A DNA stretch of 64,000 nt, taken from contig JBMNIF010000001.1 in the NCBI GenBank assembly GCA_050950765.1, positions 256,001-320,000 of the forward strand. The letters run 5' to 3'. The stretch comes from Bdellovibrionota bacterium (lineage in GTDB: Bacteria; Bdellovibrionota_C; UBA2361; JAAYZI01). Every line of letters begins with the position of its first letter. The first letter of the stretch is position 1. Positions 5,991 to 27,612 of this stretch are shown here, one piece after another. The notes under the pieces are model-generated. The model was not told the DNA's origin. It searched no databases and saw only the letters and a program-made list of their open reading frames with translations. The position numbers were made by a program, and so were the translations under genes.

Positions 5991-6240
5991 AAAAAAATGA
6001 TTATTTAATTCTTTTTCCTGACTTATGAGCTTTTTTTGGAGTTTTTTTGCTAAGTTTGTTCATTATAAAAAAACTAACTTATTGAACTTGTTGAAATATG
6101 AGAAGAAGTTTTTTAAGAACGGTGAAAATATCAACCGTGCCATCCTTTAGCTGGAAACTTTCTTTTTTTCTTATTCTTAACCTCCTCGCTTTTTGCCCTT
6201 TAGCTAGAAGCTTTCGAGCTTTTTTAAAAGAGTGTCTAGG

Positions 6241-7599
6241 CTAGGAGCTTAGGGCAATGAATCCACGGAAGTTTTTGTCGAGACGCATTAAACGCATTAA
6301 AATTTTTACTGCTTCCATCTCTGCCCATTTGTTGTTGAGATGAGTTCCTGTTTCTTCAGCAATTTTAAATGCATATAACAGGCTGAGTACAGCGTCAGTT
6401 GATTTACCAATATCAGCATTTCTCGATGCGTGTACTAGTTCGTATTGGATATAATCTAACGCAATATTTTCTATCACCTCTTTCTGTTCTTCGGTGAGAT
6501 CAGTTTTTGTTTTTTCAGCAAATTTAAGTACACGACGCACATTGTCCAAAGGTAGCTTGGTAAAACCCTCTCTCAGCCACCTCAGTGCTTCTTCTAGATA
6601 GGCTTGGATAATCTTCGGTGCAAAATCTTCTATCATTTTTTTCTGTTCTTTGGTGAGTTCAGTTTTTGTTTCTTCAGCAATTTTAAGTGCACTACGCATA
6701 TCGTCCAAAGATTGCTCGGCATAACCCTTCCTCAGCAACCTCAGTGCCCTTTCTAGACGGGCTTGGATCATATCCGGTGCAATTTCTTTTATCATTGTGT
6801 TCTCTTCGTTGGTGAGAGAAATTCCTGTTCTTTTAACAATTTCTAGTACAGGTAACACGTAGTATACAGCGTAGTTGTAATCTTTACGAGCAGCCCATTT
6901 TTGTACTTTTGCTAGTTCGGTTTGGATTATATACTTTGCAATTTCTTCTATTCTTTCGTTCTGTTTGTTGGTGGGATCAATTCCTGTTTTTTCAGCAATT
7001 TCAAGTGCAGATAATATGCGGTTCTTAAGATAAAAGATATGGTGAAAATCATGAGTCATTTCTTCCGATGCTTCGTTTAGTTCGCATGTAATCGCACGCC
7101 TCGCAGTGTCTCCTAGCATACCATTAAGTTTTTTGGGGAGCTTAATCCCTGTTTCTTTAACAATTTCAGATACAGGTAAGAAGTCTTCATAAAGTGCAAT
7201 GCGACGATTATTATCCATCAATCTCGATACCTTTACTAGATTGTATTCGATCGCTTTCTTCAGAATTCTTGCCATCTTTTTTTCTTGTTTTTTGGGGAGC
7301 TTAATCCCTGTTTCTTCAGAAAATTTACGTGCAAATAACACGGAGTCTATAGCGTCAGCGCCAAGAAAATCAGTGCCAATAAGATAGTGACCATAACGAC
7401 AAACAACTTCTGTCCATGCTTCTGCTAGTTGAACTTTGGTCACATTCGCTGAGGGGAATTTTTTTCTAGCATTATTTACGATTGAAGCAGCTGGTGAATC
7501 ATTTACAGGACGAGAAGGAAGGTTATGTCCAGCTAGTGGGTTCTCCCCCCCCTCGTTGTGATCCACTTCGTGATTGGACTTAAAACTAGGATTGATCAT
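6241..7599 (-). CDS. helical-repeat family protein copy B (intact, 452 aa, about seven ~53-aa repeats)
   Basis: Recurrent (A)E(E/K)T(G/K)xxLTxEQ...I(I)Q..L motif at 53-55 aa spacing; TAAGGT SD-like site upstream; function unknown. Confidence 0.88.
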   Translation of the reverse strand: MINPSFKSNHEVDHNEGGENPLAGHNLPSRPVNDSPAASIVNNARKKFPSANVTKVQLAEAWTEVVCRYGHYLIGTDFLGADAIDSVLFARKFSEETGIKLPKKQEKKMARILKKAIEYNLVKVSRLMDNNRRIALYEDFLPVSEIVKETGIKLPKKLNGMLGDTARRAITCELNEASEEMTHDFHHIFYLKNRILSALEIAEKTGIDPTNKQNERIEEIAKYIIQTELAKVQKWAARKDYNYAVYYVLPVLEIVKRTGISLTNEENTMIKEIAPDMIQARLERALRLLRKGYAEQSLDDMRSALKIAEETKTELTKEQKKMIEDFAPKIIQAYLEEALRWLREGFTKLPLDNVRRVLKFAEKTKTDLTEEQKEVIENIALDYIQYELVHASRNADIGKSTDAVLSLLYAFKIAEETGTHLNNKWAEMEAVKILMRLMRLDKNFRGFIALSS

Positions 7600-8433
7600 A
7601 ATATTACCTTATACAAATACAACAATACTTCTTACTTAAAAGCATTACTTAAAAGCATTTTTTAAGGATTATAATGTTTTTTAAAAACCTAAGAAACGTT
7701 TCCAACAGAAAATAATTATTTAATTTTTCCTCCTGACTTCCGAGTTTTTTTTGAGTTTTTTGTCTTAAATTACCTATCAATAGCGGCTCTGGGAGCGGCT
7801 CTGGGGTAGCTCTAGTGTCACCTACTAGCTAATCCTTTTCAATAAACCCAAAGTTAAGATCGGCGAGGCTCCGCGGGTCTTCTTCACCTCAGCGAAGTTA
7901 TTAAAGGTACAAAGCAACCGTTCCACAGCCATTAGGGATATGGTTAGTTGCTTCTGCGCTGCTTCAGATTAAGAGAAATCGCTTGCGGCTAAGACGCTTC
8001 ATGATTCCTACTGCCATCTCTGCCTGTTTTTCGGTGAAATGAGTTCCTGTTTCTTCAGCAATTTTTAATGCATATAACAGGCTGAGTACAGCGTCAGCTC
8101 TAAGGGATTCGTCACTATTAGCATATTCCGATGCTTTTGCTAGTTCGTATTGGATCGTATCTGACGCAATACTTTCTATCATCTCTTTCTGTTTTTTGGT
8201 GAGATCAGTTTTTGTTTCTTCAGCAATTTTAAGTGCATCCAACACGTTGCGTATGGCACAAGTGGCGGAGAGTTTGCCACTATCAGCATATTCCGATGCT
8301 TTTGCTAGTTCGTATTGGATCGTATTTGACGCAACACTTTTTACTATCTCTTTCTGTTCTTCGGTGAGATCAGTTTTTGTTTCTTCAGCAATTTTAAGTG
8401 CACTACGCACATTGTCCAAAGATCCCTTGGCAT

Positions 8434-10262
8434 CCTGAATTCCCGCGAAATTATACCATACAAACGTGTTTTTAAAGGTAGCTTTCGAGCGGTATAATCT
8501 TACTTTTTCTTAAAAATACTTTTTAGAAAGTCATCTTCTTCAATATTGAAAATTTTCAAAATATCCTTTTGTTTTTTTGTTAACGGAACCATTAATTTAC
8601 TGCCATTTTTAGTTTCTATAACTTTAATTTTTTGAAGCTCTTTAATGACATCAGGTATATTAAACTTTTTTTGCCTTGTATCATTTTTAAGTAAATTAAG
8701 AATATAACTTCTAAGTATAAGAGCTAAAAATCCAACAAAAAGTTTTCCTTCTGTGGTTTGAAGATTATGTGTTTTAAGTCTTCTAAAATCAATTTCATTT
8801 TTTAGCTGGAAAAATTGTTTTTCAATTACATCTTTTTGACGATAACGAAAAAGTGCTTCACTCGGATTTGAATCACAACCAATACCAATCAAAATTAAGA
8901 AGCCACAATTTCTCAAGTATTCATCTATAGCTTCTGATTTTTTTTCATAAGTAAAACCATCTTCATTTATTTTAATATCAAAATATTTCCTATATTTTTT
9001 ACGATCCAGCAAAGAGTATTTTAATTTTTTCAGTTCTTCTAACTCTTCTTCCATTCTAGAAATTTTCTCGTAAAATTGAACTATCTCATATGGCGCCTTT
9101 CCCATATTGTAATAAACATAAATCTTTACAGGTTGTCCCATAACAGTATCTATTACAGAACAACCAAAAGTAGAGGTTCCTTTTATATAATTAGCATCTT
9201 GCTTAATAAGTGCAGTGTGATTTTCTAATATTCTTTTAGCGTCATTCCAATATAGTGGCAAAGGACAAAGTAGTCCAAACTTTTGCCCTTCTTCATTTGC
9301 TACTTCCGCTAAATTATCTTGCGTCACAAAACCTTGATCCGTAACAAGGTTAATACGATTATTAAGACTAATAAATGGAAAGTCTCTTAAAAGAAAACTA
9401 AAATATGTCTTATCTGTAATGCTGCCATTATAAACTTGATAGAATAAAGGAAGCTTCGTTGTAGAGCCGTAGCACATACCTATATTTATTTGCGGCAATT
9501 TATCCATATCCCTATTATAGCCAAACTCCAATATGCTTATTTTTTTACTATAAGAAGATATGGAAGTTACGTCATAATACCAACATTCTTGAGCTAAATA
9601 TCGCTTCGTCCATTTCTTAAAAAAATTAAGTCTTTTCTCGTAGTCAATACGTTCAAAAAGACGACTTATTTTTTGACTTGTTAATTCAGAAATTTCATAT
9701 GGTAAGACACTATCATCTATCCAACTTGAAGCATGTGATACTACATTTCCATTTGCTAGAATATAAAACGCTAAAGTTAAAATCTCGTATGTGTCATTTC
9801 CAAAAATTGAAAGCAATGTCTTGTCTAACCTTAAATCTTTTACAATCTTATTTAAAACATAAGTAAGACCAAAAGATTTATTGCTAATAACATATCTATT
9901 AGAATCATCTGGAAACAAATCATAGTAATTTCTATTAGGAATTAATTTCTTACCGCTTTCATCTAGCTTCCCTATACCTATTTCATCAAACGTAGGCTCT
10001 CCGTTTTCACGACGAAAGTTCATCCTGTAATAGATATAAGTAGTCCCATTTTTGTTTTTCTTACGAGCAATTTGCCTATCTGGTAAGTCAACTTTTTTAG
10101 TTATTTTTTTTCATAAAAAACCTCCCTAATATGTATAGGGCAATCATACCATACAAACAGGAAATGTCAATATAGAAAAATATATAACTAACTAAAATAT
10201 CAATAAAAAATACGGTGGCTTATTTCTGGAATGGAGAAAAGATAAAAATTGCGGAATTTAGG
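8434..10262 (-). mobile_element. IS1634-family insertion sequence, 1829 bp
   Basis: Imperfect terminal inverted repeats CCTGAATTCCCGC / GCGGAATTTAGG; TTGGCAT duplicated at 8427-8433 and 10263-10269; lower GC than the flanks. Confidence 0.92.
8500..10114 (-). CDS. IS1634-family DDE transposase (natural start at 10114, frameshifted in an A8 run; open frame 8500-10023)
   Basis: YDVTSISSY, FGYNRD, LPQIN, TDQGF, YRQKDVIEKQFFQLKN; GGGAGG SD before ATG 10114 and a KNGTTYIY N-terminus in the downstream frame. Confidence 0.9.
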
Positions 10263-11419
10263 TTGGCATAACCCTCCCCTAGCAACCACAGTGCCCTTTT
10301 TAGACTGGCTTGGATCATATCCGGTGCATTTTCTGTTATCTTTTTTTTCTGTTCTGTGGTGAGCTCACGTTTTGTTTCTTTAACAATTTCTAGTACAGGT
10401 AATACGGAGTTTGCAGCGTTCAGGTAAATTTTACGAGCAGTCGATTCTGACATTTCTGCTAGTCCGCCTTGGATTATATAGTTCGCAAATCTTTCTATTA
10501 TTGCGTTCTGTTTGTTGGTGGGATCAATTCCTGTTTTTTTAGCAATTTCAAGAGCAGATAGTATGCACGTCTTAACGTCACTGATACTGGTAAAGCGAGT
10601 ACGAAAAATTCCTTCCAATGCGTTGTTTAGTTCGCATTTAATCGCACGCCTCGCAGTGTCTCCTAGCATATCGTTAAGTTTTTTGGGGAGCTTAATCCCT
10701 GTTTCTTCAGAAAATTTACGCGCAAGTAACACAGAGTCTATAGCGTCAGCGCTATTAAGAGCGGAACCATAACGACAAACAACTTTTGTCCATGCTTCTG
10801 CTAGTTGAACTTTGGTCACATTCGCTGAGGGGAATTTTTTTCTAGCATTATTTACGATTGAAGCAGCTGGTGAATCATTTACAGGACGAGAAGGAAGGTT
10901 ATGTCCAGCTAGTGGGTTCTCCCCCCCCTCGTTGTGATCCACTTCGTGATTGGACTTAAAACTAGGATTGATCATAATATTACCTTATACAAATACAACA
11001 ATACTTCTTACTTAAAAGCATTACTTAAAAACAATTTTTAAGGATTATAATGTTTTTTAAAAACCTAAGAAACGTTTCCAACAAAAAATAATATTTAATT
11101 TTTTTCCTGACTTATGAGCTTTTTTTGAGTTTTTAGCTAAGTTTGTTCATTATAAAAAACTAACTTATTGAACTTGTTGAAATATGAGAAGAAGTTTTTT
11201 AAGAACGGTGAAAATATCCAACGGTGAAAATATCAACCGTTCCATCCTTTAGCTAGAAGCTTTCTTTTCCTTTTTCTAACCTCTGAGCTTTTTTAAAAGA
11301 GTGTCTAGGCTAGGAGTGTTTAGGACAGGTAGAGTGAGGAACTTAGACAATATAAAGAGCTCGAATCTAGCGCTTATTTTGTAGGCATGTCTGGCGGATA
11401 GTTTTTTGAGAAAAAGACC

Positions 11420-14334: not shown

Positions 14335-14410
14335 GCCAACTTAGCTCAGTTGGTAGAGCAACGGTTTTGTAAACCGTAGGTCCTGGGTTCGAGCCCCTGA
14401 GTTGGCTCCA
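14335..14410 (+). tRNA. tRNA-Thr(TGT)
   Basis: 76-nt cloverleaf: acceptor GCCAACT/AGTTGGC, anticodon arm ACGGT-TTTGTAA-ACCGT, TTCGA loop, encoded CCA. Confidence 0.97.
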
Positions 14411-14619
14411 TTTAATTTGTCACTAAAGACGACTCACTTGTGCAAGCTATTTGGCAGCAAGTTAAATTGGCTGCAAGTCAAAGTTACACTGACTTAAAGC
14501 GCTGCTAAGCGACCTCCTCGAACAAACATCCTGAAAAGATATCTTAAGCGAACACACCTTAAGGGAGCATCTCTTCCACAGCAACTCTCTGCTTTGTGTT
14601 AGCTTTGAAGGTGGAGGGT

Positions 14620-14935
14620 TTTTTGTACCACCCTTCAGCAAGAAGTGGGTTCATATATCCACGTTTTTCTAGAAGATGCGGCTTTTCTACTTGGAAAAGT
14701 TGGCACTACTAAAAGTCGCTAGTGCCAAAATGTGGCTATATTGGCACTAGTGGGGATTAAAAAGCAGGTGCCACCCACCAGTACTATCAATAATATCAGG
14801 ACGTTAACAAAGGCTTAGGGCTTGGTAAATTTGGTACCACCCACCAGTGACAACAGGACGGGCGGCGACTTGCAGAACAAATCAGCTAGATCTCTACGGA
14901 GGTAAAAAGTGGGTGTCCTACTTGAAGTGTTTTTT
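14620..14935 (-). repeat. REP-like module cluster, reverse orientation
   Basis: 14832-14931 is the reverse complement of the 1125-1210 module; further GGTGCCACCCACC and GTACCACCCTTCAG cores; TGGCACTA..TAGTGCCA hairpin. Confidence 0.8.
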
Positions 14936-15241
14936 GAGTAGCTATTACTACTCCATTAGAAAGACCTTTCTAAAAATAAAAATCTTTTCCCCTTAATGTG
15001 GTGCCTTTGCGTGCTGCATGGTACAAAAACTTGCTTTAGTAATCTTAATTATTGGGTCTTAATGAAGAAGGAGTCTGGGGGGGAGATATTAAAAAACAGG
15101 TTATTTCAAAAGAGAGGGAAAAGTATTGATTCCTCTAAATATGAGAGTCTGGTGAAAAGATATTAAAAAACAGGTTATTTTGAGCCGTTGGGGAAATTAC
15201 CCTCCAACGGACGGTGAACGCCATTTAAAGAGGAAAAGATA

Positions 15242-18200
15242 TTGGGAAAACAGATTGTTTCAAGAGAAGGTGCGGATGATGGTTGCGATCAAGTAGAGAT
15301 GCTGCCACTTATGCGGGAGATTTATGATTTTTGTGTTAAAGCGCGTGAGATTGATGCCTTAGAGCTGGATTTCGTCCGTCGGGGAGAAGCTTTTTTTCAT
15401 GTTTCGTGTAGCGGTCATGAAAATCTGGCGTTTCTCGGTCCTCACTTAATCGCAGATGATTATCTGCACTGCCATTATCGCGACAAAGCTTTGATGCTCT
15501 ATCGTGGGGTAACACCTAAACAATTTTTCTTAAGTTTATTTTGTAAAGATGAAAGCCATAGTCACGGCAGGCAGATGTCGGCACACATCTCAGACCGCAC
15601 TTTAAATATCCTCAGTATCGTTGGACCTGTCGGTAATAACGCTTTGCAATCCGTCGGAATCGCCTCAAAGATAAAAGATAGCCCCACCAATCCGATCGTT
15701 TATTGCGCCATAGGTGACGGCACAAGTCAGCAAGGAGAAGTGCTGGAGGGTGTCGCGCAGGCGGTGCGTTGTGAATTGCCTGTGCTGTTTGTCGTTGAAA
15801 ATAACGGTTTGGCGATATCATCTCATACGAAAGGACGAACCTTTTTTTCGAGACCAGATGGTAAGGCGGAGGAGTTCTACGGTCTTCCGATCAACTATAT
15901 TAATGGTTGCAATCCACTCGAAGTTTATAAAAAATTCGGTGCTATTGTGCAGCAGATGCGGCGAGATCGTAAACCAGCTATCGTGGTAATCGAGGTTGAG
16001 AGGTTGACTAATCACACTAATGTTGATGATCAGGAAGTTTACAGAACTTCGGATGAGATCGCGCATAACTGGGAAACATCAGACCCCATTGTGATCCTTG
16101 AAAAATGGTTGCTGGATAACGGAGTTTCGCAAGTTGAGCTAAGTGAAAATAGGGAAAAGATCAGGAGTGCACTTAAGGAAGAGGCAGAAAATGCTAGAAG
16201 TGCTAAGGAGCCGCAACCTGAGTTTACTGCTAAGGCTCCTTTGTCGGAAAAATTATTAAATTGTAAAGATTATTGTGGAGGCTCTCCTGCCAAAGGTGGC
16301 GAGGGAGAATCCCTTACCATGATCGAAGCGATTAGAGAAGTTTTGCGGTATCACTTAAAAAACGATCCCGCCGTAACACTTTACGGCGAAGATATTGAGG
16401 ATCCTAAAGGGGATGTTTTTGGTGTAACGCGGGGACTCACAGAGGAGTTCGCGGGGAGAGTTAGGAACTCTCCACTTTGCGAATCAACGATAGTAGGGTT
16501 CTCTGTCGGGGAAGCGTTGGCTGGTGGGAGACCCGTAGCGTTTTTGCAGTTCGCAGATTTTATACCGATCGCTTTTAATCAGATCAGTACTGAAATGGCG
16601 TCTATGTATTGGCGGACAGGCGGAAAATGGCAAGCTCCCGTTATTTTGATGGTTTCAATGGGTGGTTTTAAACCTGGGCTTGGGCCGTTTCACGCCGCCT
16701 CTATGGAATCAACGGTGGCACATATTCCAGGGCTAGATGTTTTCCTACCTTCAACTGCTGGTGATGCAGCAGCACTTTTAAATGCCGCTTTTGAATCAAA
16801 ACGTCCGACGGTGTTTTTCTATCCGAAAAGCCTTTTAAACAGCCGCTCTTATACCACCACCCCCGATATTGAAAAACAGATAGCGAAGATCGGCACAGCT
16901 GTGCTACGAGCTGAAGGGAGTGATCTAACGTTTGTGGGGTGGGGCAATGTTTTGCCGATCCTTGAGAAGGTTGCTGCAACGTTAGCGAAATATGATGTAA
17001 CGAGTGATGTTATAGACCTGCGCTCGATCTCTCCGTGGGATGAGTCGTTAGTGTTGGAGTCTGCACGAAAAACGGCGCGAGTTGTTATTGTATCTGAAGA
17101 AAATGGAACGGCTTCAATGGCTGCTGAAATAGCAGCAACTATCGCTGAGAAAGTAGAAGACAAGGTGCAGATAAAACGGGTCACGCGACCTGATACATTC
17201 ATCCCGTGTAATTTTGCTAATCAACTTGAGGTGCTGCCGAGTTATAAATCAACTTTAGAAGCAGCGCTTGAGCTACTTGGCGGGACAGTTGAGTGGGAAT
17301 GCGTCGATAAGGAAGGGGGCGACTATATTATTAATGCTTTAGGTGCGAGCCCTTCGGATGAATCTGTTACTATCGTTGAATGGTTTGTTAAAGCTGGTGA
17401 TGTGATAGGTCCAGGCGCGGTGCTAGCTGATGCTGAAGCGGAGAAGGCTTCCTTTTCGGTTTCTTCACCTGTTGCCGGTATGGTGCAGGCTTTACTTGTT
17501 GCGGAGGGGGAGAGCACCCATGTAGGTTCCCCATTGTTAAAAGTTTCAACTGAGAACGTTAACAAAACATATAGACCGATCACAAAAGAGGACGCAGGTT
17601 TGGCACGTATCACGCTACCTGAAAAGAGTTTGAAGAAGAGTTCAAAGCAAGAAGATCGCGCTGCACAAAAACAGGAGGTCTTGTCGACTACTGCGGGGGA
17701 TGATTTTATTGCTGGCATTGTTGCTGTAAGTGCGGTTACAGGTAGTAGAAAAGTAACGAATGAAGAGATCTCAACGAATTGTCCGACTTGGACGGCTGCA
17801 GATATCTTTAGAAGGACGGGAATTAAAAATCGTTATTGGGTAAATGATGATGAAGATGCTTTGACACTAGCGTTGCAGGCAGCGAAAGACGTGCTTAAGA
17901 AAGGTGCTATTACACTTGAAGATCTTGATATGTTGATCGTTTCAACAGGTTCTCCTATTGAGATTACGCCGTCTATGGCGTGCAGTGTTTTAAGTGGACT
18001 ATCAGATCCTGCGCGGTCTGCTGCTATTCCGACTTATGATATCAATGCTGCTTGTTCGGGCTACCTCTACGGCTTACTTATTGCGTATGACTTTTTAAGG
18101 TCTGTGCCGACGGGGCGAGTCCTCTTGATCACGACGGAGGTTAGTTCGGATATAGTAGATCCTGCGGATCCTGATACTGCTGCGATCTTTGGAGATGGTG

Positions 18201-18667
18201 CTACGGCAACACTCTTAGTCGGTGCTGAAATGCGATCACAGGCGAAACTAAAGGTGGAGCGCCCTGTGCTTGGTGCTAAAGGCGATCTTGCTAGAGTTCT
18301 GCAGATTCCAAGAGACTTAACGCACCGCATGTATATGGATGGAGTAAAAGTTTTTCCGGAAGCTGTTCGAAATATGGTGTTGTTCTTAAATAAAGCTTGC
18401 GCAGCAGCTGGGGTTAAAATTTCAGACCTTGATCGTGTTATCTCTCATCAAGCTAATCAGCGCATCCTTAATTCAATTAGTCAGAAGGCGCATCTAGCAG
18501 AAGGTGTGATGTATTCTATGATTGCAGAGTATGGAAATACATCCTCATCCTCTATCCCGTTTTGTATAGATAAATTATGGGACGATATTCAACCTGCTAA
18601 AACTTGGGGGCTATGCGCTTTTGGTGGTGGATTTACCTTCGGCGGCGCTGTGCTTAAAACGTTATAG
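15242..18667 (+). CDS. fusion protein: 2-oxoacid dehydrogenase E1alpha + E1beta + lipoyl domain + FabH-type ketoacyl synthase III
   Basis: HYRD and GDG..ENN TPP motif; YGEDI, PLCESTIVG, GPFH; lipoyl-like EAEKA with V..GD / GE....G..L; DINAACSG, SHQAN, YGNTSS, FGGG. Confidence 0.92.
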   Translation: MGKQIVSREGADDGCDQVEMLPLMREIYDFCVKAREIDALELDFVRRGEAFFHVSCSGHENLAFLGPHLIADDYLHCHYRDKALMLYRGVTPKQFFLSLFCKDESHSHGRQMSAHISDRTLNILSIVGPVGNNALQSVGIASKIKDSPTNPIVYCAIGDGTSQQGEVLEGVAQAVRCELPVLFVVENNGLAISSHTKGRTFFSRPDGKAEEFYGLPINYINGCNPLEVYKKFGAIVQQMRRDRKPAIVVIEVERLTNHTNVDDQEVYRTSDEIAHNWETSDPIVILEKWLLDNGVSQVELSENREKIRSALKEEAENARSAKEPQPEFTAKAPLSEKLLNCKDYCGGSPAKGGEGESLTMIEAIREVLRYHLKNDPAVTLYGEDIEDPKGDVFGVTRGLTEEFAGRVRNSPLCESTIVGFSVGEALAGGRPVAFLQFADFIPIAFNQISTEMASMYWRTGGKWQAPVILMVSMGGFKPGLGPFHAASMESTVAHIPGLDVFLPSTAGDAAALLNAAFESKRPTVFFYPKSLLNSRSYTTTPDIEKQIAKIGTAVLRAEGSDLTFVGWGNVLPILEKVAATLAKYDVTSDVIDLRSISPWDESLVLESARKTARVVIVSEENGTASMAAEIAATIAEKVEDKVQIKRVTRPDTFIPCNFANQLEVLPSYKSTLEAALELLGGTVEWECVDKEGGDYIINALGASPSDESVTIVEWFVKAGDVIGPGAVLADAEAEKASFSVSSPVAGMVQALLVAEGESTHVGSPLLKVSTENVNKTYRPITKEDAGLARITLPEKSLKKSSKQEDRAAQKQEVLSTTAGDDFIAGIVAVSAVTGSRKVTNEEISTNCPTWTAADIFRRTGIKNRYWVNDDEDALTLALQAAKDVLKKGAITLEDLDMLIVSTGSPIEITPSMACSVLSGLSDPARSAAIPTYDINAACSGYLYGLLIAYDFLRSVPTGRVLLITTEVSSDIVDPADPDTAAIFGDGATATLLVGAEMRSQAKLKVERPVLGAKGDLARVLQIPRDLTHRMYMDGVKVFPEAVRNMVLFLNKACAAAGVKISDLDRVISHQANQRILNSISQKAHLAEGVMYSMIAEYGNTSSSSIPFCIDKLWDDIQPAKTWGLCAFGGGFTFGGAVLKTL

Positions 18668-18951: not shown

Positions 18952-21900
18952 TTAGCCAGGAACGTCTTCTTCCCTCATTTTGAATACGAGTATTTCATCA
19001 TCATCATCTTGATTTATTTCATCAGGATCTCTAAATCTAAGATTGTTTCGTTTAACTTTAATTAATCTTCTTATAGTAAGATCTCCTTTAGGTTCCTCCA
19101 TAGTTTCTGTCTCGCGCACTTGAGCGGCTAGCAACTCCTCATCCTCTTTATTTTTTTCTATAATTTTTTTAACTAAATCGCCAGCGCCCCCAGATCTCAA
19201 GCGTGGATGGACTCTTGCTTTTACCGTTGTTTCTACTTTAGCTTTAGCTGGCTGTCTAACTACATTTTTTGTTTCTGTTTTTGCTACTGCTTCAGTTTCT
19301 GTTTGTTGCTTTACCTTTACTGCAGTTTCTGTTGCTGTTTGTTTTGCAGGTTGTGTTTCTTTTGCTGTTTGATGCTCTGTTTCTTCTGCAGGTTGTGGCT
19401 TTGTTTGTTCTAGAGGTTTTGTCTCTGTTATGGGGGCTGTTTGCTCTGGTATTTCTTCATAAATTGGTTTTGTCTCTATTGGCTTTTGTTCTGGTATTTC
19501 TATTTCATAAATTGGTTTTGTTTCTGTTGTCGTTTCTTCTGCTCTGTTCTCTACGATCTTTGTTTGTTCTGCAACATTATTAGTCGTCGCAATGCGTGAG
19601 CCAGCGCGTGCTGCAGCGGCAGCGGTCGCCTCTCGTATTGAATTAAAAGAAGCTGGTTGTGTTAAGTCTATTTTCCCGAGTAAATGCTCTATATTTCCAA
19701 AAGAATTAGAGGTTTCTTCGCTAACCAATTTTACGACACCGGCGGGAGTTGGCTCTGGTGGTGGCGGTAGATCCATTGCATTATTGATACGATCTGCAGG
19801 TCTCTTTTTAAATTCTGCAACTGCTTTGTTTTGTCTAAAACTATCAAGCCAATTATTTACATCAAATTTCTGTTTTGGTACTTGAGACACTTTGGTTTCA
19901 GTTAAGGAATTAAATTTTTCATTGAATGCGGCACTATTTTTTTCAGCAGAAAAAGTCTGCTTTATATTTTTGAAACCGAGTTCAGAAGAGAAATTATTCT
20001 CTGTGGTAGCCTTTATTTTGTTAATCTGTCCAGATGATGGTGATGAAGAAGTACCATCGCCTAATTTAGGTAATCCTTCTGAACGTGGCTCTGACCTTAC
20101 AGAGGGACGTTGTGCATTACCTTTTGGAGCCTTTAATGGGGTAGATCTTTGTTGTGGAGTTACGGGTTTAACATTTTTTAAAAATTTTGTGATTTCTAGA
20201 TAGTCACTTTTAGAAAGAAAACCATCGTTTGCCATGTCCTTTAAAATAGTTTCGACTTCTTGAAAAGTTTTAGCACTTGATAATTCAAACCGCCGAGTTT
20301 TAAGACGAGTATCTTTGAGAATTTCTCTTGCTTTTGGAGTTAGTTGTGGAGAACTATCTCCTTTATTTGATGAGTTAAATGTTTTAGTATCTGTGTTTCC
20401 TCCTTTTTTAAACTCGGTTTCCGTAGTAGGTGTTGTGTTCTTTGGAGGAGTTTTAGGCTTTGGTTGAGCGGAGTTAACTGTTGTAGCCCTTCCTCCTGTT
20501 TGAGAAGATCCGCCTTGTGAAGCAGATGCGGTGTTTTTAGGAGGTTGTTGCTTTGAAGATACGTTACTATTTCCTTGTGGTGGGGTGGTTTTAGTTGTTG
20601 CAGAGTTTGTTCTTGTTTGAGGAGATCCGCCTTGTGAAGCAGATGCAGAGTTTGTTCCCATTATAAATCCGTCTAAATCGAAAGAAGATAGGGATTCTTT
20701 CAACCAATAGCGAACCTCACCTATTGTTAACAGTTCGTCCAGTTTTTGCGCCTTCCGAAGTTCTATTTTTAGCTTATTAGGAACTTCAGGATGCTTAAGA
20801 AGGATGTTTGTTTGGCGAGGGGTTAATTTTTGCTGGTTTAAACTCTGTAAAAATATTGTTGTCTTCTCTGTTGGTGCAGAAACAGTTGAAGGATTTGGAG
20901 CTTTTCCTGCTTGTTTGAAAAAGTTGTCCAAGCTGTGATTTTGTGGCTTAGCAGAGGGAACTGGAGATGATTCTCCAGTTGAAAGAGAGTTGCTATTAAC
21001 TCTCAGACTTCTAGCAGAAGAGGAATTCTGCCCTTTTGCTGAATTAAGATTAGAAAAAAACTCTTCTCCCGTCTGAGTTCTACTGTTCCCTCTTCTGCTT
21101 GAGGGAGTTTGTTTAGCTTTTGAACTTGCAGGAGTTGCAGTAGTACCTCTAGCTGCTGCAGATCCTTGTTGAGGTGAAGATGGTGGTGTAGAGCTTCTCG
21201 TAACTGTTGTAGAAGTTATACTTCCGCCGCTTTTTTGTAATCTAGCTTGAAGTTTGTTGATATAATCTGGATTAACCGTTACTCCCTGCTCTTTGAAAGC
21301 TTTGCTCATTTTTTTTATTACTCCACGAGAGGGCTTTCTTGATATATCTGAAGCATTACGAAGTGTGCCTCGTGTAAGAGGTTGCCCAGTGCGGTCACTT
21401 TTAGAAAGAAAACCATCGTTTGCCATGTCCTTTAAAATAGTTTCGACTTCTTGAAAAGTTTTAGCACTTGATAATTCAAACCGCCGAGTTTTAAGACGAG
21501 TATCTTTGAGAATTTCTCTTGCTTTTGGAGTTAGTTGTGGAGAACTATCTCCTTTATTTGATGAGTTAAATGTTTTAGTATCTGTGTTTCCTCCTTTTTT
21601 AAACTCGGTTTCCGTAGTAGGTGTTGTGTTCTTTGGAGGAGTTTTAGGCTTTGGTTGAGCGGAGTTAACTGTTGTAGCCCTTCCTCCTGTTTGAGAAGAT
21701 CCGCCTTGTGAAGCAGATGCGGTGTTTTTAGGAGGTTGTTGCTTTGAAGATACGTTACTATTTCCTTGTGGTGGGGTGGTTTTAGTTGTTGCAGAGTTTG
21801 TTCTTGTTTGAGGAGATCCGCCTTGTGAAGCAGATGCAGAGTTTGTTCCCATTATAAATCCGTCTAAATCGAAAGAAGATAGGGATTCTTTCAACCAATA

Positions 21901-24900
21901 GCGAACCTCACCTATTGTTAACAGTTCGTCCAGTTTTTGCGCCTTCCGAAGTTCTATTTTTAGCTTATTAGGAACTTCAGGATGCTTAAGAAGGATGTTT
22001 GTTTGGCGAGGGGTTAATTTTTGCTGGTTTAAACTCTGTAAAAATATTGTTGTCTTCTCTGTTGGTGCAGAAACAGTTGAAGGATTTGGAGCTTTTCCTG
22101 CTTGTTTGAAAAAGTTGTCCAAGCTGTGATTTTGTGGCTTAGCAGAGGGAACTGGAGATGATTCTCCAGTTGAAAGAGAGTTGCTATTAACTCTCAGACT
22201 TCTAGCAGAAGAGGAATTCTGCCCTTTTGCTGAATTAAGATTAGAAAAAAACTCTTCTCCCGTCTGAGTTCTACTGTTCCCTCTTCTGCTTGAGGGAGTT
22301 TGTTTAGCTTTTGAACTTGCAGGAGTTGCAGTAGTACCTCTAGCTGCTGCAGATCCTTGTTGAGGTGAAGATGGTGGTGTAGAGCTTCTCGTAACTGTTG
22401 TAGAAGTTATACTTCCGCCGCTTTTTTGTAATCTAGCTTGAAGTTTGTTGATATAATCTGGATTAACCGTTACTCCCTGCTCTTTGAAAGCTTTGCTCAT
22501 TTTTTTTATTACTCCACGAGAGGGCTTTCTTGATATATCTGAAGCATTACGAAGTGTGCCTCGTGTAAGAGGTTGCCCAGTGCGGTCACTTTTTTCAATT
22601 GCAGCTCGTAAAAAATTTGTACCTTCTTCATTTAGCGATATCCTTTTTCCAAAGGCGGAGTTTTTTACTTTTCCTTTGTTTAAAGCATTAATGGCCTTTT
22701 CTCGTGATATTGGCTTGCCGTCTACTACAGAACGTGGAGTGCGCAAGGAAAAGATAGGAGCAAGAAACATGGATAACCCTGCTGCCCGTCCAGCTGAAAG
22801 GAGGGAATTTGTGCCGACAACCCAGAAGCCGTTTCCGATACCGTTTTCCCAAGTTGCTTCCTGTGTTGCCGCACCTAAACCACCAAAGGTTGCTCCTGAT
22901 ACAAAACCGTCAGTAGCTGCTATGAATGTATTGTTAGCTATTCTGCGAAATATTTTTTCCTGAATATATTGTTGTGCTACGGCATAAGGATGAGCGACAA
23001 CTTGTTCTACTGTTTCACTAATAAAGACTTCTCCAGCCTCCTTTCCTGCTTTTTTTGCACCTTCTGCTGCTACTTTTGCTGCTGTTTTTTTTGCACTTTC
23101 TGCTGTTACTTTTGCTGCTGTTTTTTTTGCCGCAGCTTCTCCTAAACTTTCCGCAAATTCTTTTCCTGTGTTTTTTGTAACAATTTCTGCAACATTTTGT
23201 ACCCCCTCTTTTGCGGATTCTTTAATGACAGTTTTTCCCAAGTTTTCTGCGCCTTCTTGTATTGCTTCTGTTGCAATGACTCTCCCAACGCTTTTTGCGC
23301 CTTCTTCTACTGCTTCACCACCTACCTTGTAGATCGTATTGGAAACGACTGTGGTTACGCCGCTGAAACCTTTTTTCTCTAAGTATTTGGCAACTTGCCC
23401 TATGACTACTTCCTGAGTTTTTTTTGCAGCACCTAAACCAACACTAAATCCAGCACCATCAATTGCTGAGTTTATAAGTATCTCATCGATCTCTCCTGTG
23501 ATACTCATACCTCGTCCGACACCGATAATAGCTGTGCGAGTAACAAGACCTGAAGCGGTTGTCCAAAATGCGACAACAAGGGGTGTTGCACTACCACCTG
23601 AGCCGCAGATTATGCCGACAGAAAATGCTGTGGCAACACCTGTTCCGACAGCATTAGCAGCTGCTTTGGTTACCTCCGCTTTTACTTCGCGATAAAATAC
23701 AGCCTGTGTTTCTAGGCTATCCATCATTGTTAAAAATTGAATGTACTCTTCTTGAGAGATCTCTCCTGAGCCGATCTTTTGATGTAACGTCTTTGCCTCA
23801 TTATAGACTTTTGTAATGTGTTCTGAAAATTGAGGCACGAGCCATTCGACGCAACCACCCGTTGCATTTTTATAACGGGTTTCAATCTTTGACATCATCA
23901 AGTCAATGTTTTTGCGATTCTCTTCGGGATCTACACTAAAGTTGCGAGAAACAATCTTTGTTTGTAGCAGAGCATCAACTTGATCATCGCCGGACATCTC
24001 TTTTTTAATTCTTTTAACAATGTGACAGCCAGTCTCTTTATAAAAAGCTGCATCCAGCTCTAAAAACTCCTGTTCGGAGGTGATGCCGCTTAACGCTTCA
24101 CGAACCATGGCTTCATTTGTGCCGTCAAACCATCCACGAAAACCGAGCTTCAATTTTTGTAAACGTGAAAGGTCTCCCGTGTTGAAGACATCTTGAAAAG
24201 CATCAAATTGTCTACTTGAAAGCTCTGAGTGGGCGTCATTTACAAGTTCAGATTTATAAGTAGCGCTATATGCGGCATTGACCTTTTCTCTATACGTTGC
24301 ATGGCGTTTAATAGCTTCCTCTCTCTCTCCTTCTGGAAGGTATCTAATCTCTTGAGATATTAAGAAAGTATCACGTAGCTGCTCCTCAGCCGTGCCCCAG
24401 ACACCCTTCATAGCAAAACGTGCTTCCACAGCTCCAGCTTGTACAGCATCGCCATTAAGAAGTGCTTTTAACCAATCACGTCCGAGTGTTCTACTTTTTG
24501 AAGAGCCGGACATTAGGGTATCAATTTTTTTAAGGAGAGCTTCTTTCCCCCCTGAAGCATCGAGTAAGCCCTGTAAACGCTCTTGATTGATCTCCATTTT
24601 TACGGGGTCTACTAAATAGTTTTGCATTTCAAGACAGGTGCCGTGGATATCAATACTTGAACAGCCGAGCCAGTTTTCTTTTGAAAGACGTTCCACTAAG
24701 TAAGCTGCCTTTTGTGTATTTTCATCTCCTGAAAGTATAGCATTACAACGAGCGATCTCTGCGCCTGTGAAGTTGGCTTCTAGTAAAGCAGCATCCAGAG
24801 ATTTGCCATGGTGTGTTTTAAAATTTTCTTTAAATTCGGTGGCGATACGCGCTCTCTCTTCAGGTGTGGCTGCTGGATCTTGAAGGTAAGTTAAGGCTTG

Positions 24901-27612
24901 AAAAACCTTTTCTTTTGATGCCCAGAAAGTATAATCAAGGCTGGAATTAAGTTTTGCCAAAGCTATTTTTTGTGTGTCGCCCGTTGTTAGCGCTGTCGCT
25001 AGTGCTAGATCCGTTCCTGAAAAATCATTATGCATATCATCTTCAAGACGTGCACCGTATTTTTCAAAATAGATAGATTTAATTAGCTCTATCTCTTCTT
25101 TACTTTTGCCGTCTAAGGCTGCATACCATTTCTTCTCATCAGTTCCGGCGGATGATATAAAAGAAATTATACCAGATCTCCCTTTATCTTGGTATATCAT
25201 CGCCCCCATAGTGGCGTTACGCAGAGCATCTGCAGCAGCGGCGCAATTTATATAATGGTCAGAACCGCGCGTTTGAAGGGCATATGCTTCTCCTTTGAGG
25301 GTGTCAATGATATTCTCTTCGTTTAAAATTTCTTCTTTTTGTGTTGCCAAAAAGGTTGCTTTAGCAACATCTTCTTCAATCCCCGTAGAACGAAGATTTT
25401 CAATTTCAGAGTCTATAATTTGTGAAAGTCTGGCACGACGTGCTTCCTCTAGTGGCGCTAGTGATTGAAGAAGCTCTTCTCTATTTTTGCTTAAGGTTTC
25501 AGCTGTTTTTTGCTTTATTTTGATATTAGTAGTTGAAGCTTGAAGTTCTCCAATCTTTATGCTCATTTGGCGTGAAAGTTTTGAGGCTGCACTTAATTGA
25601 GCTTCATCCTGCAATTGTTGTAAGAATAGGGTTCTACTCGTGGCATAATTTGGATCATTTAAATCAAAACCATTTTCTTTAAAAAGAGCTTCATAAGTTT
25701 TACGTTTTTCATCGAGTGCTGTTATCTCTGACTGATAATCTTTTCTTTCTGTTGATTGAAGACTAAAGCCTGCTTCCCCTAAAATAGTGCCTCTTTCTTT
25801 GGCGTAAAGGTAATCCTTCTTTTCTAATAGATTTACGATCTGCTCATATGAAAGCGCACCGTTCTTTAAAATTTCAGAGGCGAAGTAATTATCAGAATTA
25901 AAAGTTAGAGAAACAGAGCCGTCACTTTCTGTAACTTCTGTATATGTACCTGAAAAATTTTCAAGTTGACTTTCAAGAGTTGTTCCATAAATCGTTTCAT
26001 AATCTTTCTGAATGGCGATTCTTTCATCTTCTGTTTTATCTGCAAAAAAAGTATGAAAGCGTAAAACTCCATTTTCACGATCTGTTACGGTGGTGTGTAG
26101 TTGCGTTATAAGCTCCCGCCGTTCTGGGGAGATCGTTATAAGAGTTTTTTGAGCGGTTGCGAGACTTTCTCGTTCCTGTTTAAAAGTTGTAGAGACATCC
26201 ACTGCTGGGAAAGATTCAGTGTTAGGAGTTTTAGAAAGAGCTTTTACCTGTTCTAGCGCTTTATCTTTAGCACCCGTCCAAGTTCTAAAAAAACCGGTGG
26301 TATTATTAAGGTTTCTTTCAATCCATTGTTCCGGATTTAGGCGCAATACCGAAGACCCTGCTTGAGCATCAAGAAAGGCTAGCCTAAAAAATTTATATTC
26401 TCCCTGCTTTATCTCTGAAAGGATGGCAGGATCTTTTGTTTTTAAAAATTCCTGCGCCTTAGCAGTCATCCGTATCTGACTCTCTTTTTGATATTTTATT
26501 GTTCGGTCTGCAACGGCTTCGATTTTAGTTGCTAAATCATACTTTTCTAAAAAAGCGGTGTTCTTTTTAAGATATGCGTTATAGGCATCCTCCCTTAATT
26601 TTGCTGCTGATTGCATACTTGAAGGGGTTTCTCCGATCAGTTTCGCCAGCCTCTGAGCATTATTTGCTATCTCTTGTGCACGAGCTTCATCTGCTGCTAC
26701 TCGTTGCACACTCTTTAAATATTCGACAAGGTCAGGACGACCCTTTAAAATCTCATTATTCTCCACCGTTTCTTGAAAACTCTTCTCAAGTTGTGCAACT
26801 TCTTTTTCTAGTAAGGTTGAATCTTGTGCATATTTTTCAGAGTTTCCAATGATAATTTCATTATCCAGACGTTGAACGCCAGTGTTATACACACCTTGTA
26901 TAGTACCGATAGACTTTCCGCTTTCTTGTGCAAATGTTGCAAGTTTTTCAAGCTCTTTAGAAAGTGCTTCCGTAGTAATCACTTTAGCAGAGTGTTCCGT
27001 AGCTACTTCTGTTGTTTTTGTTGCAAAAGAGAGTTGTTCTTCTAAAACTTCTTTGACGATAGTTGTGACTATCTCTTCAAGAGGCTCTTCATCCTCACCA
27101 CGGTTTGCGTTTTTTAATTCAGCAACTCTATCTCCATTAAGCTCTTTTAAAGCTTTTTCTAAAACTGATTGAAGATTAGTGCTATCCAAATTATTTTTTG
27201 CTTTATTAACCAGAGCTTTAAATGCAGCTTCTATAATCTGTTGCCGTTGTTCGAGAGAAAGCCCCTGCAAAAGTCTTAGCAACTCTTCACGTTCTAGCTC
27301 TTCTTTGTTTTTTAACCCACCAATCTGTTCATATATTTCAAAGAGTACAGCTTGCGAAATCTCTTCTGCTGGAGGGAGTGTTGGAATCGGTGAAAGCTCC
27401 TTCCTGAGGTCGTTAAGCTTTTCCTCCATTATCGGATTAAATAGGCTTGCAGAAAGGGAACCAGTGTGAGTATTGCTAACTTGCGCGGTTGGTGTTTGGG
27501 TTTTTAATGAGTTTGCAGAAAGGTCAGCAGGGGGGGGGTTGCTAACTTGTGCAGCTGGTCTCTCTGTTGTGTTTACTTGTGGCGTTGCTCCTCGGTTCGA
27601 CATCTCCAACAA
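18952..27612 (-). CDS. giant 2886-aa protein with annexin-like repeats, hydrophobic segments and low-complexity tail
   Basis: Uninterrupted 8.6-kb ORF with TAGGAG upstream; GTDE..L...S.EE...IK..Y...YG..LEDD...DFSG repeat pattern. Confidence 0.85.
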   Translation of the reverse strand: MLEMSNRGATPQVNTTERPAAQVSNPPPADLSANSLKTQTPTAQVSNTHTGSLSASLFNPIMEEKLNDLRKELSPIPTLPPAEEISQAVLFEIYEQIGGLKNKEELEREELLRLLQGLSLEQRQQIIEAAFKALVNKAKNNLDSTNLQSVLEKALKELNGDRVAELKNANRGEDEEPLEEIVTTIVKEVLEEQLSFATKTTEVATEHSAKVITTEALSKELEKLATFAQESGKSIGTIQGVYNTGVQRLDNEIIIGNSEKYAQDSTLLEKEVAQLEKSFQETVENNEILKGRPDLVEYLKSVQRVAADEARAQEIANNAQRLAKLIGETPSSMQSAAKLREDAYNAYLKKNTAFLEKYDLATKIEAVADRTIKYQKESQIRMTAKAQEFLKTKDPAILSEIKQGEYKFFRLAFLDAQAGSSVLRLNPEQWIERNLNNTTGFFRTWTGAKDKALEQVKALSKTPNTESFPAVDVSTTFKQERESLATAQKTLITISPERRELITQLHTTVTDRENGVLRFHTFFADKTEDERIAIQKDYETIYGTTLESQLENFSGTYTEVTESDGSVSLTFNSDNYFASEILKNGALSYEQIVNLLEKKDYLYAKERGTILGEAGFSLQSTERKDYQSEITALDEKRKTYEALFKENGFDLNDPNYATSRTLFLQQLQDEAQLSAASKLSRQMSIKIGELQASTTNIKIKQKTAETLSKNREELLQSLAPLEEARRARLSQIIDSEIENLRSTGIEEDVAKATFLATQKEEILNEENIIDTLKGEAYALQTRGSDHYINCAAAADALRNATMGAMIYQDKGRSGIISFISSAGTDEKKWYAALDGKSKEEIELIKSIYFEKYGARLEDDMHNDFSGTDLALATALTTGDTQKIALAKLNSSLDYTFWASKEKVFQALTYLQDPAATPEERARIATEFKENFKTHHGKSLDAALLEANFTGAEIARCNAILSGDENTQKAAYLVERLSKENWLGCSSIDIHGTCLEMQNYLVDPVKMEINQERLQGLLDASGGKEALLKKIDTLMSGSSKSRTLGRDWLKALLNGDAVQAGAVEARFAMKGVWGTAEEQLRDTFLISQEIRYLPEGEREEAIKRHATYREKVNAAYSATYKSELVNDAHSELSSRQFDAFQDVFNTGDLSRLQKLKLGFRGWFDGTNEAMVREALSGITSEQEFLELDAAFYKETGCHIVKRIKKEMSGDDQVDALLQTKIVSRNFSVDPEENRKNIDLMMSKIETRYKNATGGCVEWLVPQFSEHITKVYNEAKTLHQKIGSGEISQEEYIQFLTMMDSLETQAVFYREVKAEVTKAAANAVGTGVATAFSVGIICGSGGSATPLVVAFWTTASGLVTRTAIIGVGRGMSITGEIDEILINSAIDGAGFSVGLGAAKKTQEVVIGQVAKYLEKKGFSGVTTVVSNTIYKVGGEAVEEGAKSVGRVIATEAIQEGAENLGKTVIKESAKEGVQNVAEIVTKNTGKEFAESLGEAAAKKTAAKVTAESAKKTAAKVAAEGAKKAGKEAGEVFISETVEQVVAHPYAVAQQYIQEKIFRRIANNTFIAATDGFVSGATFGGLGAATQEATWENGIGNGFWVVGTNSLLSAGRAAGLSMFLAPIFSLRTPRSVVDGKPISREKAINALNKGKVKNSAFGKRISLNEEGTNFLRAAIEKSDRTGQPLTRGTLRNASDISRKPSRGVIKKMSKAFKEQGVTVNPDYINKLQARLQKSGGSITSTTVTRSSTPPSSPQQGSAAARGTTATPASSKAKQTPSSRRGNSRTQTGEEFFSNLNSAKGQNSSSARSLRVNSNSLSTGESSPVPSAKPQNHSLDNFFKQAGKAPNPSTVSAPTEKTTIFLQSLNQQKLTPRQTNILLKHPEVPNKLKIELRKAQKLDELLTIGEVRYWLKESLSSFDLDGFIMGTNSASASQGGSPQTRTNSATTKTTPPQGNSNVSSKQQPPKNTASASQGGSSQTGGRATTVNSAQPKPKTPPKNTTPTTETEFKKGGNTDTKTFNSSNKGDSSPQLTPKAREILKDTRLKTRRFELSSAKTFQEVETILKDMANDGFLSKSDRTGQPLTRGTLRNASDISRKPSRGVIKKMSKAFKEQGVTVNPDYINKLQARLQKSGGSITSTTVTRSSTPPSSPQQGSAAARGTTATPASSKAKQTPSSRRGNSRTQTGEEFFSNLNSAKGQNSSSARSLRVNSNSLSTGESSPVPSAKPQNHSLDNFFKQAGKAPNPSTVSAPTEKTTIFLQSLNQQKLTPRQTNILLKHPEVPNKLKIELRKAQKLDELLTIGEVRYWLKESLSSFDLDGFIMGTNSASASQGGSPQTRTNSATTKTTPPQGNSNVSSKQQPPKNTASASQGGSSQTGGRATTVNSAQPKPKTPPKNTTPTTETEFKKGGNTDTKTFNSSNKGDSSPQLTPKAREILKDTRLKTRRFELSSAKTFQEVETILKDMANDGFLSKSDYLEITKFLKNVKPVTPQQRSTPLKAPKGNAQRPSVRSEPRSEGLPKLGDGTSSSPSSGQINKIKATTENNFSSELGFKNIKQTFSAEKNSAAFNEKFNSLTETKVSQVPKQKFDVNNWLDSFRQNKAVAEFKKRPADRINNAMDLPPPPEPTPAGVVKLVSEETSNSFGNIEHLLGKIDLTQPASFNSIREATAAAAARAGSRIATTNNVAEQTKIVENRAEETTTETKPIYEIEIPEQKPIETKPIYEEIPEQTAPITETKPLEQTKPQPAEETEHQTAKETQPAKQTATETAVKVKQQTETEAVAKTETKNVVRQPAKAKVETTVKARVHPRLRSGGAGDLVKKIIEKNKEDEELLAAQVRETETMEEPKGDLTIRRLIKVKRNNLRFRDPDEINQDDDDEILVFKMREEDVPG
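20203..22593. repeat. in-frame 1191-bp (397-aa) tandem duplication
   Basis: GTCACTTTT at 20203, 21394 and 22585; no differences noticed between the two copies. Confidence 0.95.

Follow-up and report, generated by a model that had tools for sequence, protein, structure and literature searches.

By the textbook route of Bacillus, Staphylococcus and Listeria, the branched-chain 2-oxoacid dehydrogenase complex feeds FabH with acyl-coenzyme A (acyl-CoA; compare PMC11167679 and PMC12751926), and two other reports describe alternative starts of type II fatty acid synthesis (FAS II), through the malonyl-acyl carrier protein (malonyl-ACP) decarboxylase MadA/MadB (PMC8666670) and through FabB of Pseudomonas putida F1 (PMC10869286). 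It is the initiation step that sets whether the fatty acids of a bacterium are straight or branched. FabY is a further initiation route, and in the pathways of the tetrahydroisoquinoline antibiotics quinocarcin and naphthyridinomycin a two-carbon unit is said (2012) to be loaded onto a carrier protein in a lipoyl-dependent manner. In this study, we analysed a gene in a 64,000-nt stretch of DNA (the window) from a Bdellovibrionota bacterium (assembly GCA_050950765.1, contig JBMNIF010000001.1, positions 256,001 to 320,000). It encodes on one chain, in this order, the alpha and beta parts of a 2-oxoacid dehydrogenase E1, a lipoyl domain and a FabH-type 3-oxoacyl-ACP synthase III (KAS III). The protein can be viewed as an oxoacid dehydrogenase in which a ketosynthase stands at the place of the core of the acyltransferase component (E2), each part being of a known kind. 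We think it probable, though far from assured, that this fusion is a 2-oxoacid-primed, CoA-free starter enzyme, in which the acyl group passes from lipoamide directly to the FabH cysteine and on to condensation with malonyl-ACP, the lipoyl arm being recycled by the dihydrolipoamide dehydrogenase (E3).

The gene (C1:271242-274667 of a 2.64-Mb assembly in five contigs, 94% complete and 1.55% contaminated) is a single intact frame of 1141 aa, stop included. The initial annotation had placed E1 alpha, E1 beta, lipoyl and FabH parts in this one open reading frame (ORF), and its coordinates match those of Pfam (Table 1), all six Pfam domains scoring over their curated cut-offs. The E1 alpha part carries the GDG...N motif (G158-D159-G160...N188, nt 15713-15805) and a conserved loop (R254/H258/N260/D262/Y267), and the E1 beta part comprises Transket_pyr (aa 357-533, E 5e-27, 95 bits) and Transketolase_C (aa 551-661, E 7e-24, 84.5 bits). 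Biotin_lipoyl (PF00364) matches aa 707-767 (nt 17360-17542; E 1.4e-11, 44.5 bits against a cut-off of 22.1), where there are also weak NCBIfam matches to E2 lipoyl regions; the putative lipoyl-lysine, Lys735 (nt 17444-17446), lies in the motif AEAEKA(S), a (D/E)KA turn and not the biotinyl MKM. The KAS III part is covered by ACP_syn_III (PF08545; aa 932-997, E 1.8e-18, 66.7 bits) and ACP_syn_III_C (PF08541; aa 1053-1139, E 1.1e-20, 74 bits), and the NCBIfam FabH models align with it from end to end. Its Cys938 (nt 18053-18055), His1069 (nt 18446-18448) and Asn1099 (nt 18536-18538) line up with the triad motifs of FabHs whose structures are solved, and Arg1074 is the counterpart of E. coli FabH Arg249, a residue that presumably serves ACP docking. 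A Pfam scan of the ORF found no E2 core (PF00198).

The 120 best protein matches (49-60% identity, 1092-1162 aa) all contain the same six Pfam domains, and the C-terminal 345 residues of these family members were aligned with E. coli FabH (NC_000913.3) and ten free FabHs of relatives. Lys735, the lysine of the EAEKA motif already singled out as conserved in the initial annotation, is invariant in 120/120 members, as is A736. The Cys-His-Asn triad, described there as intact, is equally invariant in all 120, together with Asn1072 and Arg1074; in E. coli numbering, Cys112, His244, Asn274, Asn247, Gly209 and Arg249 are kept throughout. On the E1 side, G158, G160, N188 and Glu414 are invariant (120/120), and so is the R254/H258/N260/D262/Y267 loop; from family knowledge, we take the first three to be the thiamine-diphosphate motif and Glu414 to be the glutamate that activates the cofactor. 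Given this invariance across 120 members, all the parts needed for decarboxylation, reductive acylation of the lipoyl arm and decarboxylative condensation are conserved.

A very different picture was obtained for the residues that hold CoA. In E. coli FabH, as described in part of PMC4606726, the CoA adenine is sandwiched by Trp32 and Arg151. The counterparts of these residues are W and R in 10/10 free FabHs of the relatives, whereas W and R occur in 0/120 fusion members at the respective positions, the present copy having Asp and Pro. Among the 120 fusions, position 32 is occupied by Asp (86), Glu (22), Lys (6), Gly (4), Gln (1) or Arg (1), and position 151 by Pro (56), Tyr (16), Lys (12), Phe (11) or other residues. 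The position of Phe87, which in E. coli FabH presumably closes the primer pocket, is Thr in 117/120 members. As far as the alignment tells, the hold on the CoA nucleotide is the sole systematic loss in the family. Taking the lost CoA contacts together with the retained catalytic residues and Arg249 counterpart and with the retained genes for lipoylation and E3 (see below), direct transfer from lipoamide to FabH appears to have gained support, if not proof.

From these data, we infer the following course of reaction; lipoylation, acyl transfer straight from the lipoyl arm to the cysteine, the nature of the substrate and what becomes of the product are all part of this inference. The fused E1 alpha-beta would decarboxylate a 2-oxoacid, most likely 2-oxoisovalerate, 2-oxoisocaproate or 2-oxo-3-methylvalerate and possibly also pyruvate, using thiamine diphosphate, and would reductively acylate the lipoyl-Lys735 arm on the same polypeptide. 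The S-acyl-dihydrolipoyl arm would then reach into the tunnel of the FabH domain tethered to it, taking the site usually filled by the pantetheine of acyl-CoA, and the acyl group would be transferred to Cys938. His1069 and Asn1099 would drive the decarboxylative condensation with malonyl-ACP to 3-oxoacyl-ACP, to be elongated by the FAS II enzymes, while the separately encoded E3 would reoxidise the dihydrolipoyl arm with NAD+. The net reaction would be 2-oxoacid + malonyl-ACP + NAD+ -> 3-oxoacyl-ACP + 2 CO2 + NADH, with neither an acyl-CoA nor an E2 involved.

The same residues bear on another reading, that the KAS III part is an acyltransferase which replaces the E2 core and passes the acyl group from lipoamide to CoA or holo-ACP without any condensation. 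FabH enzymes have a known acyl-CoA:ACP transacylase activity, the domain is placed exactly at the E2-core position, and no other E2 was found in the 94%-complete genome. However, His1069 and Asn1099, the residues for malonyl decarboxylation and condensation, and the Arg249 counterpart are invariant in 120/120 members, the absence of the CoA-nucleotide residues from all of them argues against CoA as acceptor, and a pyruvate:ferredoxin oxidoreductase (PFOR) is available for acetyl-CoA; we regard such a transacylase as unlikely.

Structure prediction by AlphaFold2 with the 120-row alignment gave a mean pLDDT of 91.2 and a pTM of 0.71. In a Foldseek search, the E1 beta part matched the Thermus thermophilus branched-chain enzyme (1um9_B; TM 0.94, 40% identity) and the KAS III part matched FabH structures (TM 0.92-0.94); sequence matches in the PDB reached E 5e-41 for FabH, 4e-59 for E1 beta and 3e-33 for E1 alpha chains. 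In the model, the lipoyl domain abuts E1 beta nearly without a linker, and the only disordered tether is the charged linker between the conserved segment and the FabH domain, in agreement with the linker that had been noted before KAS III; its length in the alignment ranges between 13 and 54 residues across the family. The conserved segment itself, with the family consensus KPxTxExPGxPxI, reads RPITKEDAGLARI in the present copy, which is partly diverged, and is modelled as a short strand (pLDDT ~88); E3, E1 or FabH may dock there. Since E1 (alpha2beta2) and FabH are each two-fold symmetric, a homodimer could satisfy both. A complex prediction of the lipoyl domain (aa 690-775) with a FabH dimer (aa 822-1141, two copies), each partner being given its family alignment, returned no verdict (both scores 0.00, the mark being 0.32; controls not run) and carries no weight either way.

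The initial annotation had also stated that there is no E2 or E3 gene nearby. The first part stands, and can be extended from the ORF to the genome: the E2 core (PF00198) had 0 matches in this 94%-complete assembly, whereas the same search was positive in 10/14 control genomes. The second does not, inasmuch as a single E3 gene (C1:235488-236891; TIGR01350, 534.5 bits against 408.8) is located ~34 kb upstream of the ORF, outside the window, and is immediately followed, on the same strand, by lipB (TIGR00214, 160.5 bits), the pair spanning C1:234785-236891. LipA is encoded as well, both it and LipB scoring over cut-off. GcvP, GcvT and pyruvate formate-lyase were not found in the 94%-complete genome. 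There is an orphan GcvH over cut-off (C3:416285-416698; L022:6282-6665), beside folD and a polysaccharide pyruvyl transferase, which may be a lipoyl relay or have another role, and a biotin system (BCCP and a BirA-like ligase) is also encoded. With a PFOR of 1181 aa, the bacterium is an anaerobe that has ferredoxin enzymes in place of 2-oxoacid dehydrogenase complexes, yet has kept lipoate synthesis and E3. As no E2, GcvP or GcvT was found, the fusion is the only lipoyl-dependent enzyme detected that could justify keeping LipB, LipA and E3. A relative of the same family (G001) has, instead of the fusion, an E1alpha-beta + E2 operon and a canonical FabH (295 bits).

A second E1 alpha (314 aa)/E1 beta (327 aa) pair lies at C2:467582-469506 (L021:5582-7506) of this genome without an E2. 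It is far under the NCBIfam cut-offs for pyruvate dehydrogenase (PDH) E1 (171.8 against 393.85 and 185.5 against 321), and inspection by eye found SNA...QNC where the thiamine-diphosphate motif GDG...ENN is expected; the pair may be degenerate, repurposed or an E1 able to load the lipoyl arm of the fusion. Because this pair looks degenerate, E1 decay does occur in the genome, and one may ask if the fusion too is a decaying or non-functional remnant, or if its lipoyl-like domain is a structural spacer that is never lipoylated. Against this stand the intact 1141-aa frame, the invariance of the catalytic residues over 120 members at 49-60% identity, the confident model, the retention of LipB, LipA and E3 without another client found and, weakly, contigs from RNA libraries that match the gene, and we can give hardly any credence to such a remnant.

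With regard to fatty acid starters, only two KAS III domains are present in the genome, and the fusion is its only match of >60 bits to the E. coli FabH query. The other KAS III (C1:370718-371779) matches NF006720 over cut-off; behind it come an alpha/beta-hydrolase::AMP-ligase that matches olefin beta-lactone synthetase models and a reductase that matches OleD models, both under cut-off; the region C1:370718-375645 (L018:4718-9645) is likely an ole-type cluster for a head-to-head olefin or beta-lactone lipid. In the 94%-complete genome, neither YiiD_C/MadB nor the divergent KAS III of ~330 aa that is found in many relatives was detected. The latter protein (G001, G003, G004, G006, G010, G016, G018, G020, G022 and G033; L121-L130) has the motifs TACPxFALH, GHQAN and GNQAGAGAP and 25-28% identity to E. 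coli FabH, and several of its carriers lack a canonical FabH over cut-off. FabF, FabD, FabG and ACP are encoded over cut-off but scattered, with no fabH beside fabG-acpP, and the opposite strand carries plsY 3.2 kb upstream of the fusion. The E2, E3, lipA and fabH check proposed in the initial annotation therefore recovered E3, LipA and LipB and neither an E2 nor another FabH. In the present genome, the fusion thus appears to be the only priming route. The simplest reading is that here it has replaced both FabH and E2; the limits of this reading are the missing 6% of the assembly and the FabH-independent starts elsewhere. We give slightly less than an even chance to the full proposition that a ketosynthase stands in the place of the E2 core, that the fusion is this anaerobe's only lipoyl enzyme and only starter, and that LipB, LipA and E3 are kept solely for it.

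Several points weigh against these conclusions. We know of no experimental precedent for lipoylation of Lys735 or for transfer from dihydrolipoamide to a ketosynthase cysteine. No Pfam E3_binding match was found in the ORF at E<=0.01, although a very divergent copy in aa 778-823 is possible, and the FabH domain is under both NCBIfam cut-offs (NF006829, 243.1 against 249; TIGR00747, 207.3 against 292.1). The fusion gene is unlinked to E3, lipB, acpP or fab genes, and E3 is adjacent to the fusion in 1/80 loci of the family. Since the assembly is 94% complete, a missed E2 or fabH is conceivable, and parts of PMC8666670 and PMC10869286 describe FabH-independent fatty acid starts in some bacteria. 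In the present genome no E2 and no other FabH was found, but most of the other carriers have both: an E2 core is present in 31/31 of those examined and a strong stand-alone KAS III (>=100 bits on PF08541) in 28/31, the three without one being G016, G054 and G069. The fusion therefore usually adds a priming route and does not replace one, and the family as a whole need not be the sole starter nor E2-free.

The E2 cores of all 31 other carriers, together with the textbook route from the branched-chain (Bkd) complex to FabH, which works in this way, would suit a conventional two-step pathway that is merely fused, a separate E2 making acyl-CoA for the FabH domain. Here, however, no E2 core was found, as against 37/40 relatives with one; moreover, the CoA adenine contacts are lost in 120/120 members, and a conventional complex would hardly be expected to carry its lipoyl domain on E1 and not on E2. 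This makes the two-step pathway very improbable in our view. The ordinary FabH kept in 28 carriers also leads to the suggestion that the fusion primes a specialised lipid or polyketide-like product, for instance the branched or unusual chains of an olefin, an aryl polyene or a signal molecule, while the bulk of synthesis starts otherwise. The patchy distribution of the gene (2/41 genomes in the order) is typical of accessory functions, a FabG-like short-chain dehydrogenase/reductase (SDR) follows it in 21/80 loci, as in a dedicated small pathway, and ole and aryl-polyene-like clusters occur in the genome. On the other hand, no other FabH-type starter, MadB or divergent KAS III was found in this genome to start bulk synthesis, and the gene lies outside both lipid clusters, alone near plsY; we consider a specialised product rather unlikely, and retain a CoA-free starter of FAS II as the preferred reading.

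The expectation that similar architectures exist in other genomes was borne out not only by the 120/120 best matches but also by a one-genome-per-species scan, in which 726 pattern matches gave 658 confirmed relatives, that is, at least 658 species genomes. The domain-architecture search that had been proposed has thus uncovered a large family, carried mostly by Spirochaetota. Among the best 80 of the 658 relatives, which are near full-length, 68 are from records titled Spirochaet*, and the other 12 are from Armatimonadota, Planctomycetota (Pirellulaceae, Phycisphaerae), Sumerlaeota, Syntrophobacteraceae and Ca. Accumulibacter. In its own order, the full fusion is present in only 1/40 relatives (G016), i.e. 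in 2/41 genomes. Proteins of ~420-490 aa composed of a lipoyl and a KAS III domain were found on long contigs (P0138, P0155, P0157, P0159 and others), although many of the short matches in the same listing are contig-end fragments. Like the fusion, these proteins have the lipoyl domain followed by KAS III, with 40-42% identity over 95-100% of residues 690-1141; unlike it, they carry no E1 on the same chain. They indicate split forms of the E1-lipoyl-KAS III family. One source labels homologues of the fusion '2-oxoisovalerate dehydrogenase E1 component'.

Synteny was examined by tblastn (E<=1e-8) in 80 loci, with E3, lipB, lipA, gcvH, fabF, fabD, acpP, plsX, plsY and the upstream phosphatase-like gene as queries. 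Outside the fusion itself, nothing turned up but E3 (1/80), an E. coli FabH-like gene (1/80) and FabG-like SDRs (21/80). No conserved operon partner was detected in these loci except the FabG-like SDR, which is absent downstream of the present gene; the 12 nearest such SDRs, all in Spirochaet*-titled loci, share the strand of the fusion and follow it at a distance of 28-424 bp.

The gene has a GC content of 45.9% (97.8th percentile of long ORFs) in a genome of 40.4%, but its GC3 is only at the 90th percentile; a tRNA-Thr(TGT) gene lies 830 bp upstream (window 14335-14410). A FastTree tree places the gene among unnamed metagenome proteins, beside a Spirochaetota/Armatimonadota clade and apart from the copy of G016, the sole other carrier in its order; the tree is weakened by three rows with absurd branch lengths (L057, L084 and L096; probably wrong ORFs), which were retained in it. 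These data are suggestive of an acquisition by horizontal transfer, which is plausible.

The nearest solved E1 is the branched-chain enzyme of T. thermophilus (1um9; 118 bits for alpha and 204 bits for beta), with Geobacillus PDH E1 scoring 81 and 186 bits. All NCBIfam E1 models scored under their cut-offs (at best 196.6 bits against 454, 167.9 against 321 and 157 against 411), and as these scores are below the equivalog cut-offs the substrate class of the E1 is left unassigned. The substrate is judged from similarity, which cannot separate pyruvate from branched-chain substrates. IlvE (TIGR01122, 365 bits against a cut-off of 245), homologues of IlvD and LeuA-D and a weak homologue of IlvC are present, indicating that branched 2-oxoacids are available; the Thr at position 87 and the ordinary FabH that coexists in most carriers would fit a non-acetyl primer. 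On this sequence evidence, branched-chain 2-oxoacids seem to us slightly favoured as the substrate, the remainder of the probability falling to pyruvate or broad specificity.

Two metatranscriptome studies, with three libraries between them, provide contigs that match the gene at 99-100% identity (0-1 differences; nt 15619-15939, 16350-16540 and 17855-18253). With DNA carry-over possible, these contigs are a weak hint of expression, and they cannot show level, strand or ends; parts of the gene and its surroundings that no such contig covers carry no meaning. Most of the gene is contained in DNA sequencing runs made on anaerobic digesters, bioreactors and wastewater; beyond six possible source runs there are nine, of which eight are from seven studies and one names no study.

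The coordinates of the gene and its parts are collected in Table 1. The start codon is uncertain, homologues aligning from about residue 20-30 and residues 1-12 being disordered in the model.

Table 1. Parts of the E1-lipoyl-KAS III fusion gene, in window coordinates
Feature	Residues (aa)	Window position (nt)	Strand	Basis
Whole ORF		15242..18667	+	TTG start; GAGG at 15230-15233, 8 nt 5' of TTG
E1 alpha part, thiamine-diphosphate binding	32-327	15335..16222	+	Pfam E1_dh, E 1e-40, 140 bits
E1 beta part, pyrimidine-binding and C-terminal transketolase-type domains	357-661	16310..17224	+	Pfam
Lipoyl domain, strands	682-769	17285..17548	+	Pfam Biotin_lipoyl; model strands
Conserved segment	778-791	17573..17614	+	Near-invariant columns; directly after lipoyl domain
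Flexible charged linker	798-819	17633..17698	+	pLDDT <50
FabH-type KAS III domain	824-1139	17711..18658	+	Pfam ACP_syn_III and ACP_syn_III_C

Some other features of the window were noted in passing. Just upstream of the fusion gene, the 830-bp non-coding region 14411-15241 contains short direct repeats seen by eye, atattaaaaaacaggttatt occurring twice near 15088-15180 and ccacccaccagt twice near 14771-14850. Convergent to the gene, and with no obvious link to it, is a giant ORF of 2886 aa (18952-27612, reverse strand) that is internally duplicated over several hundred residues and has low-complexity regions rich in Ser/Thr/Pro/Gln. Further away (4538-10975, reverse strand), there are paralogous ORFs of 344, 452, 151 and 251 aa made of repeats such as KIAEETKTDLTEEQK, one array being broken by a transposase-like ORF of 507 aa (8500-10023).

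A full-text literature search, with most subscription journals and patents outside its coverage, returned no description of an E1-lipoyl-KAS III protein, in keeping with the absence of any known characterisation in the initial annotation, and PMC2649909 makes no mention of one. If the proposed mechanism is true, the hand-off of an acyl group from lipoamide to a ketosynthase would be new to biochemistry, and, if the fusion is also the only starter, every fatty acid of this organism would be primed from a 2-oxoacid without an acyl-CoA intermediate. A lipoate-dependent, CoA-free starter would add both a new route and a new acyl-transfer chemistry to fatty acid initiation, and would account for a protein that occurs in hundreds of species from Spirochaetota, Armatimonadota, Planctomycetota and other groups. 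It would also be of use in engineering, as a compact single-gene part with which a host could be made to produce branched-chain lipids. The present genome, in which no E2 and no other FabH was found, represents a natural minimal case.

Compared with the known systems, the fusion shares with the pair of branched-chain dehydrogenase complex and FabH the E1 fold, the thiamine-diphosphate motif, the lipoyl arm, a genomic E3, the condensing enzyme and the conversion of a 2-oxoacid into a FAS II primer. It differs in that no E2 core and no peripheral-subunit-binding domain were found, that E1 carries the lipoyl domain, and that a FabH lacking the CoA-adenine contacts is tethered at the place of the E2 core. 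The MadA/MadB and FabB starts likewise provide the first acyl unit to FAS II in an alternative way, but through malonyl-ACP decarboxylation or elongation synthases and without a 2-oxoacid, thiamine diphosphate or lipoate. In the tetrahydroisoquinoline pathways, an E1-like enzyme and a lipoyl arm reportedly acylate a biosynthetic thiol without free acyl-CoA, as proposed here; there, however, an E2-type acyltransferase domain is said to be involved, the acceptor being an ACP and not a ketosynthase cysteine and the product a secondary metabolite. Relative to free FabHs (E. coli 1HN9/1HND, Aquifex aeolicus 2EBD, Staphylococcus aureus 1ZOW and Bacillus subtilis FabHA 8VD9; 27-32% identity), the KAS III part has the same fold (TM 0.92-0.94), the Cys-His-Asn triad and the counterparts of Asn247, Gly209 and Arg249, whereas Trp32 is replaced by Asp/Glu, Arg151 by Pro or others and Phe87 by Thr, the domain scores under the NCBIfam FabH cut-offs, and it sits behind an E1 and a lipoyl domain.

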